From assembly GCA_963745835.1 (NCBI GenBank), contig CAVUZH010000022.1, forward strand, positions 32,001-96,000: a stretch of DNA of 64,000 nt. The letters run 5' to 3'. Below are positions 32,751 to 39,850 of the stretch, piece after piece. The stretch comes from an uncultured delta proteobacterium. Lineage in GTDB: Bacteria; Desulfobacterota; Binatia; UBA9968. The notes beneath the pieces are model-generated. The model was not told the origin of the DNA. It saw nothing but the letters and a program-made list of their open reading frames with translations, and ran no database searches. Position 1 is the stretch's first letter; each line of letters begins with the position of its first letter. A program made the translations under genes and the position numbers.

Positions 32751-33410
32751 GTAGCAGGTTGCCAACGAACTGCGTGCGGTTTACGCCAAGCGAAACATCG
32801 ATCCCCAAGCCAAGCTTCAGCGGGCCCAACCCCAAGTCTCGGGAGCCGAGGATCTCAGCGGCTATGCTCCGAGGATTGTGGGAGAAGATGTGGAGCTTTT
32901 GGGGTTTGTCAATCGGCAGATTGGAGGACTGGACAAGGAGTTGATGAAGATCGCTCTTGAAGATGGCTCGGCTAAGCGGCTGATGACGATCCCGGGGGTG
33001 GGAGCGGTCAGTGCGGTGGCGATGAGCTGCTGGATTGGCGAGATTGCTCGATTTTCTAATGCGAAAAAGTTGGCCAGCTACTTTGGGTTGGCGCCGCGGG
33101 TGCGCCAGAGCGCCGAGACCGAACGCCATGGACATATCACCAAAGAAGGTAATCGCATGGTGCGCTCTCTGGTGATCCAAGCCGCCCTGGTGCATACGCG
33201 AAGGGGTAAAGGCCCGAGCCGTAAGCATTATTTCGGGGTGCTTAAAAGAAGAGGCAAGCCGATGTGAAAAACTCTGGTTGCAGGCTGCTTAAAAAGATCC
33301 AGAGGCAAGACGCGCGAAAAACGACGAGCTAAGGCGTACTTCCAGTACGTTGCAGCGAGACGTTTTGAGCCGCAACGAAGCATATGGGGTCTTTTTCAGC
33401 AGGCTGTCAG
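32751..33410 (+). mobile_element. MITE-like repeat copy C, interrupted inside its left TIR by a transposase fragment
   Basis: GTAGCAGGTTGC (32751-32762) | insert | TGAAAAACTC...CAGGCTGCTTAAAAAGATCCAG...CTTTTTCAGCAGGCTG (to 33406). Confidence 0.85.
32763..33264 (+). pseudogene. Internal fragment of the IS110-family transposase, lacking both IS ends
   Basis: Matches 38773-39273 except for one substitution seen by eye (GGCCCGAGC vs GGCCCCAGC), plus one extra G at 33264. Confidence 0.92.
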
Positions 33411-35241: not shown

Positions 35242-37173
35242 ATGCCTTACATCATCGGCACCGCCGGACACATCGACCACGGTAAAACCAGCCTGATCAA
35301 AGCTTTGACCGGCGAGGACACCGACCGGCTCAAGGAAGAAAAGGAGCGCGGCATTTCCATCGATTTGGGTTTTGCCCAACTCGATCTCGGCGACGGCAAT
35401 CTCGCCGGAGTTGTCGACGTTCCCGGCCATGAGCGCTTCATCAAGAACATGCTGGCGGGCGCGCACGGCATCGATCTGGTGCTCTTTACCGTTGCCGCCG
35501 ACGACGGCGTCATGCCGCAGACCGAAGAACACCTCGACATCGTTCACTTGCTCGGCATCAAGGTAGCCGTCTTCGTGATCACCAAAGCGGACCTGGTTTC
35601 GCAGCCGCGCATTGCCGAAGTGGAAGAGGAAATCAACATCTTGACTCTCGGAACCGTTCTGGAAGATTCGCCGATCATCGCGGTTTCCTCAGCCACCGGC
35701 CAGGGGCTCAGTGAGCTCAAGCAGCTTGTTTCTCAATCATTGAAGTCTATCGATAAACCGGCGCCGAGCGGCTACTTCCGCCTCCCGGTGGACCGCGCTT
35801 TCGTGTTGCAGGGCCATGGCGTAGTGGTGACCGGCACGGCGCGCAGCGGCGAGATCAGGACCGGCGATCGGGTGCGTTGCCTGCCCGGAGAGCAAATTTT
35901 TCGCGTGCGCAGCCTGCAGGTGCACGGAGAATCTGTCGAGCTTGCCGGCTGGGGCCAACGGGTGGCGCTGAATCTCACCGGACCCGATACCGCCGAAGTC
36001 GCGCGCGGCCACGTCATCTGTCACGAGAAGATCTCGCTGACTTCAAATCGCTTCGACGCCTACTTGGAAGTCCGTCCGGCGGCGCGCAAGGGCATCAAGA
36101 ACCATCAGAACGTGAGGGTCCATTTGGGGACCGCCGAACGGCTTGGCAAAGTCATCATCCTCGGCGAAAGGGACCATATCGAGCCGAAGCAATCGGCGTA
36201 CTGCCAGATCACGCTGGCCGAGCCGATCCTGGCTTTGCGCGGCGATCATTTCATTCTCCGCGATGAAACCGCGCAACGGACACTCGCCGGCGGCATGGTG
36301 ATCAACCCATGGGCCAGAAGACATAAGCGCTCCGACGATCTGCGCGACAAACTCGAAGCGCTACACCGCGGCGACATCACCCAACTGACGGAAGCGTTCC
36401 TGGAAGAAAGCGAAGCGTTTGCCTTGCCGCTGGAATCCATTTACCAGTTCCTCGATTGCCGAGAGGAACTGATTCGCAGCTCCATCGACAAAATGAAAAA
36501 TGTCCGCGCGGTCAGCGCGGAGGGCGAGAAAGTCTACACCACCGAGCCCAAATGGCAGCGTCTCAAAGAGCAGATTTCCAAGATCCTCAAGGATTTCCAC
36601 GCAACCCATCCGCTGGTTCCGGGCATGGATATGGAAGAGCTGCGCGGCAAGCTCGCCTACGAGCTTTCGCCCAAAGTCTTCCGGCTGGTGATCGACGGAC
36701 TGATCGGTGAACGGCTGATCGCCAAGGAAGAAAACCTGCTGCGGTTAGCCCAGCATAAACTTCAGCTTGGCGGTCAAGACAAGTTGCTGATGGAGCGAAT
36801 AAAGAAAATCCTTGCCGAACACGAGATGGCGCCGCCGGAGCTGAAACAGATCGAAAAAGACGCGGCGGTGCCGCGCGCGAAATTGGCCGAGGTGCTGCGC
36901 CTGCTCGAAAGAGAGCGGTCGGTGGTCAAAGTAGCTACCGATCTGTATTTCCTATCTAGTTGTGTCGACAAGGTTAAGAATCTGCTTTGCACGCACCTCG
37001 CCGAGCAGGGTGAAATATCGGCTGCCACATTTCGTGACCTGCTGGGATCAAGCCGAAAATATACCATTGCGCTATTGGAACATTTCGATCGAGAAGGCGT
37101 GACTCTGAGGGTCGGCGACGTTCGGCGCCTGAAAGCCGCTTCGGTAACTGAAAAGCGTGGCTCAGCGCATTGA
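35242..37173 (+). CDS. selB: Selenocysteine-specific translation elongation factor
   Basis: [42 protein letters not shown]-terminal SRKY.I.LLE.FDR winged helix. Confidence 0.97.
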
Positions 37174-37207
37174 ATTGAGTTTGCGATCGAACTACACTCA
37201 CAGGTCT

Positions 37208-38263
37208 ATGATGCTCGGAAATAAAAAAGCCGTTCGGCTGACGCAGTCAGTCAAAGCCGCGGGTTGAGCCGCTAAGCTCGGCCCTGCCGACCTCGTGCAA
37301 GTTTTGCACGATCTGCCAAAGTTCAACCACCCGGACATGTTGGTCGGGACGGAGACCTCCGACGACGCCGGAGTCTTCCGCTTGCGGCCGGATCTCGCAA
37401 TCGTCAACACGGTCGATTTCTTCACGCCGATTGTCGATGACCCGTATACCTTCGGACAGATCTCGGCGACCAATTCGCTCAGCGACGTCTACGCCATGGG
37501 CGGTGAGCCCAAGACATGCCTGAACCTCGTCTGTTTTCCAAAAGGCAAGATGGATATCGAAATCCTGGGAGAGATCCTCAAAGGCGGCGCTGATAAGGTC
37601 AAGGAAAGCGGCGCGGTGATCATCGGCGGTCACAGCATCATCGACGAAGAAATCAAATACGGTCTGGCCGTGACCGGGACCATCCATCCCGATAAGATCT
37701 ACCGCAATGTCGGCGTGCAGGAAGGCGACGCGCTGATTCTAACCAAACCTCTCGGCACCGGCATCATCACCACGGCTCTCAAGAAAGGTAAAGCTGCCGA
37801 ACAAAGCGTCGATCAAGCCGTTCGGTCGATGACCACGCTCAACGCCACGGCGTCTAACGTGATGCGCAAATTTGCCGTGCACGCCTGCTCGGATATAACC
37901 GGCTTTGGCATCCTTGGTCATGGTTTGGGAATGGCCAGCGGCAGCGGTGTGACTCTGGTGATCGAATCGGCCAAGCTGCCGCTTCTGCAAGATGCCACCC
38001 ATTTAGCCGAGAAAGGCTACATCACCGGCGGCTGCAAACGTAATCGCGAGTTTTTGCAGGATAAAATATTCATCGAAAACTCGATCCGTGAGGGGCTTAT
38101 CGAAGTAGCCTTGGACCCGCAAACCTCGGGCGGACTGCTGATAGCCGTCGCCAACCGACATGCATCACAGCTTCTTGAAGAGCTTAAGAGCGCAGGTATC
38201 GACGCGGCAACGCAAGTCGGCTATGCCACCTCGCTGCAGAAATCCTGGATACGGCTCGTCTGA
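37208..38263 (+). CDS. selD: Selenide, water dikinase, selenocysteine-containing
   Basis: MMLGNKKAVRLTQSVKAAG-U(TGA 37265-37267)-AAKLGP in frame with the track ORF at 37295; DDAGV, TVDFFTPIVDDP, SDVYAMGG, LTKPLGTG, DPQTSGGLL. Confidence 0.95.
37268..37311 (+). promoter_or_regulatory. Putative bacterial SECIS element
   Basis: After the UGA: TCGGC-cct-GCCGA (37278-37290), then an 8-bp stem TCGTGCAA-gtt-TTGCACGA (37293-37311) with a G-first apical loop 33 nt after the UGA. Confidence 0.7.
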
Positions 38264-38359
38264 ACCATCCGTTAGCAGGTTGCTGATCTTATAAACGGAA
38301 TGGCCTCCGCGCGACCGGCTATGGTACACCGGCGGAGACAAAACCTTAGGAGGCCAGCG

Positions 38360-39376
38360 ATGGAACATTTTGTTGGTATCGATTTACACAAGTACGTATC
38401 ACAATTGGCGGTGTTGAGGGAAAGCCGATCTCCTTCACAGTTGCGTTTGGCGAATGACGTTGTGGCGGTGGAACGGGTTTTAAAGAAACTTCCCAAGGGG
38501 AGCAAGATAGCGCTAGAGGCGATGGGTTCATGGTGGTGGATGGTGGAGCTAGCGCAAAAGACCGGCCACGAAGTGTTTTTGTCCCACCCCAAGCAGACCA
38601 AGGCGATCGCGTCAGCGCGGTTGAAGTCCGATAAGGTCGATGCTTTGATGTTGGCCAAGTTACTTAAGGCCGATCTGCTTCCCACGGTGTGGATCCCTCC
38701 TGAAAACCAACGTCATATTCGCGAGCTTCTGACCCACCGGGCGCGCCTGGTGCGTCAACGAACCGCTGTGATCAACGAACTGCGTGCGGTTTACGCCAAG
38801 CGAAACATCGATCCCCAAGCCAAGCTTCAGCGGGCCCAACCCCAAGTCTCGGGAGCCGAGGATCTCAGCGGCTATGCTCCGAGGATTGTGGGAGAAGATG
38901 TGGAGCTTTTGGGGTTTGTCAATCGGCAGATTGGAGGACTGGACAAGGAGTTGATGAAGATCGCTCTTGAAGATGGCTCGGCTAAGCGGCTGATGACGAT
39001 CCCGGGGGTGGGAGCGGTCAGTGCGGTGGCGATGAGCTGCTGGATTGGCGAGATTGCTCGATTTTCTAATGCGAAAAAGTTGGCCAGCTACTTTGGGTTG
39101 GCGCCGCGGGTGCGCCAGAGCGCCGAGACCGAACGCCATGGACATATCACCAAAGAAGGTAATCGCATGGTGCGCTCTCTGGTGATCCAAGCCGCCCTGG
39201 TGCATACGCGAAGGGGTAAAGGCCCCAGCCGTAAGCATTATTTCGGGGTGCTTAAAAGAAGAGGCAAGCCGATTGCCCGGGTGGCGGCGGCCAACAAACT
39301 GTTGGGCGTGATTTTTCATATGCTCAAAGAACGCATCGACTATCATGAATTCCTCAGGCGTAGCGACGCACAGTGA
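38360..39376 (+). CDS. IS110-family DEDD transposase / bridge recombinase (338 aa)
   Basis: AGGAGG RBS; VGIDLHK (D), ALEAMG (E), KSDKVDA (D,D); TIPGVG; YFGLAPRVRQSA (catalytic Ser); ITKEGN; ARVAAANKL. Confidence 0.96.
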   Translation: MEHFVGIDLHKYVSQLAVLRESRSPSQLRLANDVVAVERVLKKLPKGSKIALEAMGSWWWMVELAQKTGHEVFLSHPKQTKAIASARLKSDKVDALMLAKLLKADLLPTVWIPPENQRHIRELLTHRARLVRQRTAVINELRAVYAKRNIDPQAKLQRAQPQVSGAEDLSGYAPRIVGEDVELLGFVNRQIGGLDKELMKIALEDGSAKRLMTIPGVGAVSAVAMSCWIGEIARFSNAKKLASYFGLAPRVRQSAETERHGHITKEGNRMVRSLVIQAALVHTRRGKGPSRKHYFGVLKRRGKPIARVAAANKLLGVIFHMLKERIDYHEFLRRSDAQ

Positions 39377-39524
39377 GTCCGTACTTTTTCATGGTCGCAA
39401 GACCGAGTTGCTGATTGGGCAGCTGTGCCTCTCCAGAGGGAGAACCGCCGGATTTAAGATCATGCGCTTTTAAAGGGCGCGAAGAGATGAGTGGGTCGCT
39501 ACCCATACGTTGATCAGCCCGGCG
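39368..39524 (+). ncRNA. Bridge RNA / seekRNA of the IS (target-binding and donor-binding loops); ends approximate
   Basis: Guides CTTTTTCA (39384-39391) and GTTGCTGA (39407-39414) match the target; TAAGATCA (39455-39462) and AGAGATGA (39483-39490) match the circle junction; enclosing stems GCACAG/CTGTGC and CGCCGG/CCGGCG. Confidence 0.88.
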
Positions 39525-39643
39525 ATCAGAGCCGAAAAGGGGAATACCAGGAGTCATATTAAACCGAGATCGTGCGTTATAAGCGAAATACGGAGGTCTT
39601 TTTTTTAGAAATCATTGCAAAACAAAATCAGGCTGTAACCCAC

Positions 39644-39671
39644 TTGACTGAGCCGTTCCGTTTAGAGATGA
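39644..39671 (+). promoter_or_regulatory. -35 half of a circle-junction promoter
   Basis: TTGACT (39644-39649), 17 nt, then GATGAA in the chromosome but GATGAT once the right and left ends are joined. Confidence 0.6.
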
Positions 39672-39850
39672 AAAAGCCCATAGGCTTCGTTGCTCTCGAC
39701 CGATTGCGCGTCAACGTGCAGGAGCACGCCTCCGCTTATCGATCTTCGCGCGCATGGATCTTTTTGAGCAGCCCGCCACCGAACTCAGCAACCTGCTAAA
39801 CTTCTACACTTCCCGAAAATTCCTGGTTCGGCTGAGCACCAAATTAGATT

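Follow-up and report, generated by a model that had tools for sequence, protein, structure and literature searches.

An IS1111-group insertion sequence from an uncultured Binatia bacterium and the bispecific guide RNA predicted in its right end

The window analysed here, 64,000 nucleotides (nt) of contig CAVUZH010000022.1 (GenBank assembly GCA_963745835.1, positions 32,001 to 96,000 of the forward strand) from an uncultured delta proteobacterium (Desulfobacterota; Binatia; UBA9968), contains an intact insertion sequence (IS) of 1385 bp. With one copy of its core counted the element is 38284-39668 or 38286-39670, its whole span in the window is 38284-39670. The left junction (38279-38291) reads GTTGC-TGA-TCTTA and the right junction (39664-39676) reads AGAGA-TGA-AAAAG. 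A recombinase gene lies between non-coding ends of 74 nt on the left and 292 nt on the right, and subterminal inverted repeats of 13 nt (38292-38304 and 39652-39664), which are 92% complementary, are found 6 and 4 nt inside the TG core. It is very probable that a bispecific guide RNA, about 167 nt long, is encoded in the right non-coding end of this IS1111-group element and steers insertion to one repeated sequence (Table 1).

The recombinase contains the domains PF01548 (E-value 4.9e-18) and PF02371 (5e-24) and matches the NCBIfam model NF033542, 'IS110 family RNA-guided transposase', with 246 bits, where the cut-off is 140. It is remotely similar to the solved enzymes of IS621 (8wt6, E-value 4.9e-14, 55.6 bits) and ISCro4 (E-value 3.3e-13). 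The residues D8, E53, D91, D94 and S254 are invariant in an alignment of 22 sequences and align to the corresponding motifs of IS621. The motif GLAPRVRQSA keeps the G, L, P and S of the pattern GL-P----S(t)G, its last residue is A and this is also the consensus of the clade. In IS1111 elements as described in PMC11187229 the motif ends in SG, TG or occasionally TA.

Of 8000 proteins scored in a protein search, 2062 reached E<=1e-30, and the 22-sequence alignment was used to gather 80 metagenomic loci with 46-98% protein identity. A scan of genome contigs with the single protein found one close full relative (L008, 95%) as well as fragments, and it placed relatives in Pyrinomonadaceae and Binatia genomes. 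A sample of 401 genomes from the phylum contained three distant relatives. The clade is apparently one of soil and sediment bacteria. Among plasmid records all 426 with a match fall in the band under 60% identity, the best of the 85 matches listed has 41.7%. The named plasmid matches are an IS1328-annotated element (36.9% identity), ISAtu7 (34.4%), ISMch4 (31.4%) and ISKpn2 (28%). The element is a member of the IS1111 group of the IS110 family and is, as far as can be seen from these matches, unnamed.

The boundaries of the element are independently confirmed, because a second copy, an empty site and the relatives all point to the same ends. The second copy, at G000:C19, is 96% identical and has the same flanks, and its similarity to the window copy stops at the same two points. 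At the empty site (C19:495372, minus strand) both flanks abut and the continuation is the right-hand one of the window copy. The 80 metagenomic relatives have ends in common with the window element.

The structured RNA begins inside the recombinase gene. The last six codons overlap the outer closing helix (P1) and the first half of the target-loop outer stem, and the stop codon (39374-39376) is placed in a small bulge of that stem. The stem has 11 pairs, with 99.0% of cells paired and compensatory changes at five pairs. It encloses the target loop, a symmetric internal loop of about 10+10 nt, in which guide g1 and a T are followed by the hairpin GGTC-GCAA-GACC (39393-39404), then by GA and guide g2. 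The T before this hairpin and the G of the GA after it form a U.G pair that lengthens it. The donor loop has the same order, with g3, T, the donor hairpin, GA and g4. A preliminary description, which was made from the letters of the window and a list of their open reading frames (ORFs), had already proposed this layout for both loops, together with a first stem that begins within the last transposase codons and four 8-nt guide matches. All of this is borne out: the four matches are on the plus strand at the places claimed and P1 overlaps the end of the gene. The proposed length of 338 aa is also right, it follows from a start at 38360, where the relatives start too. A structured region does exist at 39368-39524, where the RNA had been placed, and its extent has been redrawn to 39360 to about 39526.

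Table 1. Features of the insertion sequence and its target in the window.
Feature	Position	Strand	Remarks
Left target flank GTTGC	38279..38283	+	Matched by variable part of g2; C19 copy, L039, L048 and L052 flanked alike
Left TG core copy	38284..38285	+	TGAT starts the left end in 57/57 readable relatives
Left non-coding end, 74 nt	38286..38359	+	Holds left subterminal repeat (38292-38304) and ribosome-binding site AGGAGG (38348-38353)
Recombinase gene, 338 aa, DEDD plus Ser type	38360..39376	+	PF01548, PF02371, NF033542
Predicted bridge/seek RNA, long form, ~167 nt	39360..39526	+	Structured; consensus structure, pair counts, covariance model
Outer closing helix P1, 5' strand	39360..39367	+	Pairs with 39495-39502; 5/6 counted pairs compensatory
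Target-loop outer stem, 5' strand (39369-74, 39377-81)	39369..39381	+	Pairs with 39416-20 and 39422-27
g1, target guide CTTTTTCA	39384..39391	+	Complementary to right-flank top strand (TG plus AAAAAG); 9/9 with 39668-39676
Target-loop inner hairpin	39392..39405	+	U.G closing pair, GGTC/GACC stem, GCAA loop; 97.2% of cells paired
g2, target guide GTTGCTGA	39407..39414	+	Equals left-flank top strand plus TGA; five variable nt, TGA invariant
Spacer hairpin between loops	39430..39443	+	39430-34 with 39439-43; 93.6% of cells paired, 4/5 pairs compensatory
Candidate pseudoknot helix, 5' strand	39446..39451	+	Pairs with 39519-39524; 90.4% of cells paired, 3/8 pairs compensatory
g3, donor guide TAAGATCA	39455..39462	+	Complementary to left end (TGATCTTA)
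Donor-loop inner hairpin	39464..39480	+	GCGCTTT-TAA-AGGGCGC; 97.0% of cells paired, 4/5 pairs compensatory
g4, donor guide AGAGATGA	39483..39490	+	Equals right end (AGAGATG) plus one flank-matching base
Conserved 42-nt module with terminal T run	39564..39605	+	Between RNA and -35 box; kept in most relatives
-35-like hexamer TTGACT	39644..39649	+	17 nt upstream of terminal GATG
Right subterminal inverted repeat	39652..39664	+	92% complementary to 38292-38304
Right TG core copy	39669..39670	+	Junction reading
Right target flank AAAAAG	39671..39676	+	Matched by g1

When the stretches that follow the gene are aligned, variable blocks of guide sequence stand out within a scaffold that is conserved. 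With 27 sequences, RNAalifold gives 26 pairs, 15 of them with compensatory changes. With the spacer hairpin added the structure has 30 pairs, for which 94.2% of cells are paired in 27 relatives, compared with 34-44% when the partners are slid. Both sides have changed at 19 of the 30 pairs, and none of 500 shuffles reaches any of five measures. The helix 39446-51/39519-24 crosses P1 and may be a pseudoknot or an alternative fold. The minimum-free-energy fold of the single sequence, which pairs g2 with downstream bases and 39373-80 with 39438-45, was dropped; it is the family consensus that covaries.

A covariance model of the RNA matches 74 of the 80 metagenomic loci directly after the gene, the six misses are contigs that end inside the gene. 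It also matches L033, a relative with 33% protein identity (26.9 bits). Neither the second IS110-family gene of the genome (L037) nor L032 and L034 are matched, and the four named plasmid ISs are without a match at E<=1. Across the genome the model finds the two IS copies and matches at E-values of 0.08 and 0.84, with no free-standing copy of the RNA. A search of 38200-39800 against Rfam 15 at E<=10 returned only three matches at chance level (E-values 0.8-5.9), to unrelated families. Two matches per short contig were seen in L104 and L115; those in L104 are on opposite strands and suggest adjacent or nested copies.

The target guides follow the target flanks through the family. Both guides and both flanks are readable in 43 of 70 loci, window included, and in the other 27 a flank is absent or the extraction failed. 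The 43 loci represent 19 distinct guide pairs. Matches were scored over 11 variable positions, five of g2 and six of g1. Cognate guides and flanks match at 10.12 of the 11 positions on average (11 in 20 loci, 10 in 10, 9 in 11 and 8 in 2), non-cognate pairings at 2.87 (n=774). When each guide pair is represented by a single locus, the matches add up to 187 of 209, a score above that of all 20000 permutations (permuted maximum 124). A single-base switch is found in the closest relatives, where g2 with GTTGC occurs with GTTGC flanks and g2 with GCTGC with GCTGC flanks. This natural reprogramming of the target guides is the decisive evidence for a guide RNA. Natural redirection is known for ISEc11 and ISXne4 (PMC11187229), the series found here is much larger.

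These results bear on an alternative, that the region is an ordinary structured 3' untranslated region or a terminator and that its complementarities arose by chance. The lack of an Rfam match would fit this, as would a T run at 39594-39601. In a right non-coding end of 292 nt, however, the expected count is only 0.0043 for a given 8-mer and about 4e-10 for all four guides. No terminator-like hairpin is present in 39377-39670, and terminator-like sites in the element occur only inside the gene. The segment 39505-39625 folds no better than shuffled sequences (z +1.51), for which reason the T run was dropped as a terminator. The alternative is contradicted by the guide-flank covariation in 19 lineages and by the statistics of the 30-pair structure, and we consider it extremely improbable.

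The target belongs to an abundant host repeat, which resembles repetitive extragenic palindromic (REP) sequences. The core of the repeat is CAGGCTGCTGAAAAAG, often then followed by ...CATATGCTTCGTT; the window carries it at 38270-38286 and, in inverted orientation, at about 39786-39799. The genome has 145 occurrences of the looser core CAGG[CT]TGCT[GC]A. The 12-mer G[CT]TGCTGAAAAA occurs 53 times, 44 times with GCTGC and nine times in the GTTGC form that fits g2; all nine are unoccupied. The window IS fits the minor GTTGC variant of the repeat and the guide of sister lineages fits the major GCTGC variant.

The window copy, the C19 copy and loci L039, L048 and L052 are five copies at GTTGC/TGAAAAA, whose outer flanks are all different. 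Two short contigs from run X1 carry the left end next to a flank that matches C18:461052 and the right end next to one like that at C3:469676, sites which are both empty in the genome. There are several independent insertions at one sequence. Insertion is orientation-specific in the five differently flanked copies, viewed with the one empty site, and only TG (here TGA) is repeated.

Two internal fragments of the recombinase gene, of about 500 bp and 98-100% identical to the window copy, were also found, at 32763-33263 and at G000:C3:491052-491541. Both are without either end of the element and without the RNA, and each lies between the halves of a cognate target repeat (left half ...AGGTTGC, right half TGAAAAAC...). 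At its right edge the C3 fragment has a TGATC from inside the gene, joined at TGA to the target, as expected from recombination at a false left end; the remaining three edges do not fit that scheme. Partial, half-site recombination by the system might conceivably have left the fragments as its footprints. The left breakpoint of the internal fragment coincides with a perfect 9-nt complement between the RNA tail (39508-16) and the gene (38769-77). This complement was given no weight, since by estimate about four such matches arise by chance per 1.4 kb.

The preliminary description had proposed a core of three nucleotides, TGA, within a symmetric 5+3+5 recognition sequence. TGA is indeed common to both junctions, the empty site and all four guides in the window copy and its closest relatives. 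Across the family this proposal fails. Lineages differ in the base that follows TG in the right flank, where A, T, G and C all occur, while A is constant at this place in g2 and in the left end. In every locus where the pattern was found g2 ends in TGA, which is followed by the conserved TTGGGCAGC (with single-base variants). The right end closes with AGAGATG in 50 of the 55 loci with a readable right junction. Pairing of g1 extends over six variable nt past TG and that of g2 over five, and four loci have TG at the left junction and TC at the right. Only TG is common to donor and target across lineages, the core of the family is therefore TG, and the TGA overlap in the window arises because its target happens to carry A at this position. 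A trinucleotide core is accordingly improbable.

In the four loci with TC at the right junction (L074, L076, L092 and L093) g1 is altered to match, and the left junction and g4 stay TG. The second base of the core can thus differ between junctions. Judged from these four related sequences, the pattern would fit top-strand exchange just after the T.

We propose that a complex of recombinase and RNA would bring a circular form of the element, in which the right end is joined to the left at TG, to the sequence GTTGC-TG-AAAAA(G). In the target loop g1 would pair with the right half of the target, on its top strand, and g2 with the left half, on the bottom strand. In the donor loop, around the second hairpin, the partner of g3 would be the element's left end and that of g4 its right end. 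All four guides overlap TG, the predicted site of strand exchange. Insertion would occur in a single orientation and duplication would be limited to the core. By analogy with work on IS621 and ISEc11, the RNA would be bound by the recombinase, Ser254 and the DEDD site would carry out strand exchange at TG, the gene and the RNA would be transcribed together from a promoter at the circle junction, and the RNA would be processed to a shorter, target-only form. The parts of this scheme that are directly supported are the anatomy, the conservation and covariation of the helices, the guide-flank covariation in 19 lineages and the independent insertions at one sequence. The earlier proposal of a bispecific guide RNA downstream of an IS1111-group gene, in which one loop serves the target and the other the ends of the element itself, has held up.

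Several observations weigh against this scheme. The C19 copy, the only other full copy in the genome, is a pseudogene with frameshifts and two TAG stops. A promoter scan found no sigma-70-like promoter in the integrated element. Contigs from RNA libraries cover 39415-39605, DNA may be present in such libraries and transcription is not thereby shown. These contigs come from four runs and hold scattered parts of the element, including 39415-39507 without mismatches (X6) and 39438-39605 (X7), and they were not counted as evidence; gaps in this cover carry no meaning either. Word depth in X6 is highest on 39419-39524, although contig depth cannot rank the parts of a gene. In the donor loop, AGAGATG of g4 is invariant in the RNA and its pairing with the right end is without covariation support. 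The contiguous match between g3 and the left end is 5-8 nt in relatives, the window having the maximum of 8. A short, target-only seekRNA of 82 nt was sufficient for movement of ISEc11 (PMC11187229), by which precedent the donor loop may be dispensable. The role of the donor loop is for this reason the weakest step of the explanation.

The donor-loop observations lend some weight to a second alternative, in which the active species would be a short seekRNA (about 39368-39428) with the target loop as sole guide. The protein would recognise the ends through the 13-bp repeats, and the donor guides would be scaffold that resembles the ends. The ISEc11 precedent, the presence of the subterminal repeats and the invariance of g4 and the right end favour it, as does the contiguous match of g3, which is only 5 nt in seven of 16 distinct combinations. 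Against it, the variable positions of g3 track the left end: they match in 39 of 64 cells, where 27.8 are expected from permutation, and only one of 20000 permutations reaches this value. In the most distant clade the left end has switched from TGATC to TGATG and g3 has switched with it (CAUCA). Helix P1, which covaries, surrounds the two loops, and the donor hairpin is retained together with both donor guides down to 46% protein identity. We regard a target-only RNA as rather unlikely.

With the long bispecific RNA as the preferred reading, further features of the guides deserve mention. In g4, AGAGATG is followed by one or two bases that tend to agree with the right flank; the first of these matches in eight of 13 distinct combinations, which 66 of 20000 permutations reach. 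The invariant A that follows TG in g2 agrees with the left end. The bridge RNA of IS621 has 'handshake' guides, that is extensions which match the partner DNA, and the flank-matching bases of g4 and the fixed A of g2 recall these.

The IS1111-type systems described in PMC11187229 have a gene of 330-350 aa, subterminal repeats of 7-17 bp, a downstream non-coding region and a long RNA of 145-170 nt, in which the top-strand guide is 5' of the bottom-strand guide. Every testable defining feature of such a bridge or seek RNA system is found here, save that A instead of G follows the catalytic Ser. The element shares a protein of about 340 aa, subterminal repeats and a long downstream non-coding region with ISEc11, ISPa11, ISKpn4 and ISPst6, and its RNA resembles IS1111-type seekRNAs in guide order, length, repeated targets and the natural exchange of guides among relatives (PMC11187229). 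The insertion point of ISEc11 is given as TG*AA in a review table (PMC13604230), which is like the TG/AA found here. Unlike those four ISs, the element has another target and SA after the catalytic Ser in place of SG or TG, a comparison made by description rather than by sequence or fold.

Like IS621 and ISCro4 (PMC11208160; PDB 8wt6, 9t56), the system has a homologous recombinase and a predicted bispecific RNA that would pair with both strands around a 2-nt core. In contrast to these, the RNA is at the right rather than the left end, the guide order is reversed, the core is TG rather than CT, one outer helix encloses both loops instead of two separate stem-loops, and the subterminal repeats are long. 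The IS1328-annotated element, ISAtu7, ISMch4 and ISKpn2 belong to the same protein family at 28-37% identity, and three of these four proteins are longer (395-411 aa).

Systems of this kind are already known, because bridge RNAs have been predicted at the right end in 93.0% of IS1111s (Durrant et al., PMC11208160). Downstream bridge or seek RNAs of IS1111 elements were first described in 2024, and the novelty suggested in the preliminary description was overstated. Its suggestion of an uncharacterised scaffold has weak support: there is no Rfam 15 family and the covariance model is blank in the four named ISs, but the class as such is published. A literature search returned no published match to the scaffold; the clade itself or comparable folds may appear in supplementary tables or figures from Durrant et al. 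or Siddiquee et al. The review PMC13604230 does not use the word 'pseudoknot' once. The new elements are modest and consist of a clade without a name so far, the TG core, a fold with a single outer helix and a possible pseudoknot, and a rich series of retargeted guides.

It is conceivable, and we suggest it only tentatively, that the clade represents a distinct class of IS1111 bridge RNA scaffold, with a single outer helix, donor guides in a multi-helix junction, a pseudoknot, guides that match products and half-site footprints. In such a scaffold the helix 39446-51/39519-24 would tether the 3' tail beside the donor guides. The guides may fit the products of insertion as well as the substrates, TGA of g2 being like the left junction and one or two bases of g4 matching the flank.

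The current picture of how IS1111 elements work is left unchanged by these results. They provide a well-documented natural series in which one conserved scaffold, with a TG core and a compact enzyme of 338 aa, is combined with at least 19 target specificities. Such material is useful for the programming rules of this less-studied IS1111 branch and for the choice of orthologues.

In 47 of the 57 loci with a readable right end a TTGAC-like hexamer stands upstream of the terminal GATG, at a distance of exactly 17 nt. Joining the ends would add AT and so give GATGAT, a putative -10 element present only on the circle. By comparison with Siddiquee et al., who propose a circle-junction promoter for the gene and long RNA (PMC11187229), we infer that such a promoter may drive both here.

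An unrelated repeated element contains the conserved 42-nt module too, with 90% identity, in three copies (L005-L007), where it lies about 140 nt inside the end, opposite a 459-aa ORF. The module has no convincing hairpin and no Rfam match. In a contig of a relative, from the RNA-library assembly of run X7, the segment 39002-39400 is joined to 39638-39666, so that 237 nt (39401-39637) are gone and six other bases are present instead. This contig is without most of the RNA and the 42-nt module, and it may be a deletion derivative or a chimera.

Two ORFs are found just upstream of the element (35242-38263), by eye their products resemble an elongation factor of the SelB type (643 aa) and, for the second, a selenophosphate synthetase (322 aa). 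The IS starts about 20 nt past the stop codon of the putative selenophosphate synthetase ORF.

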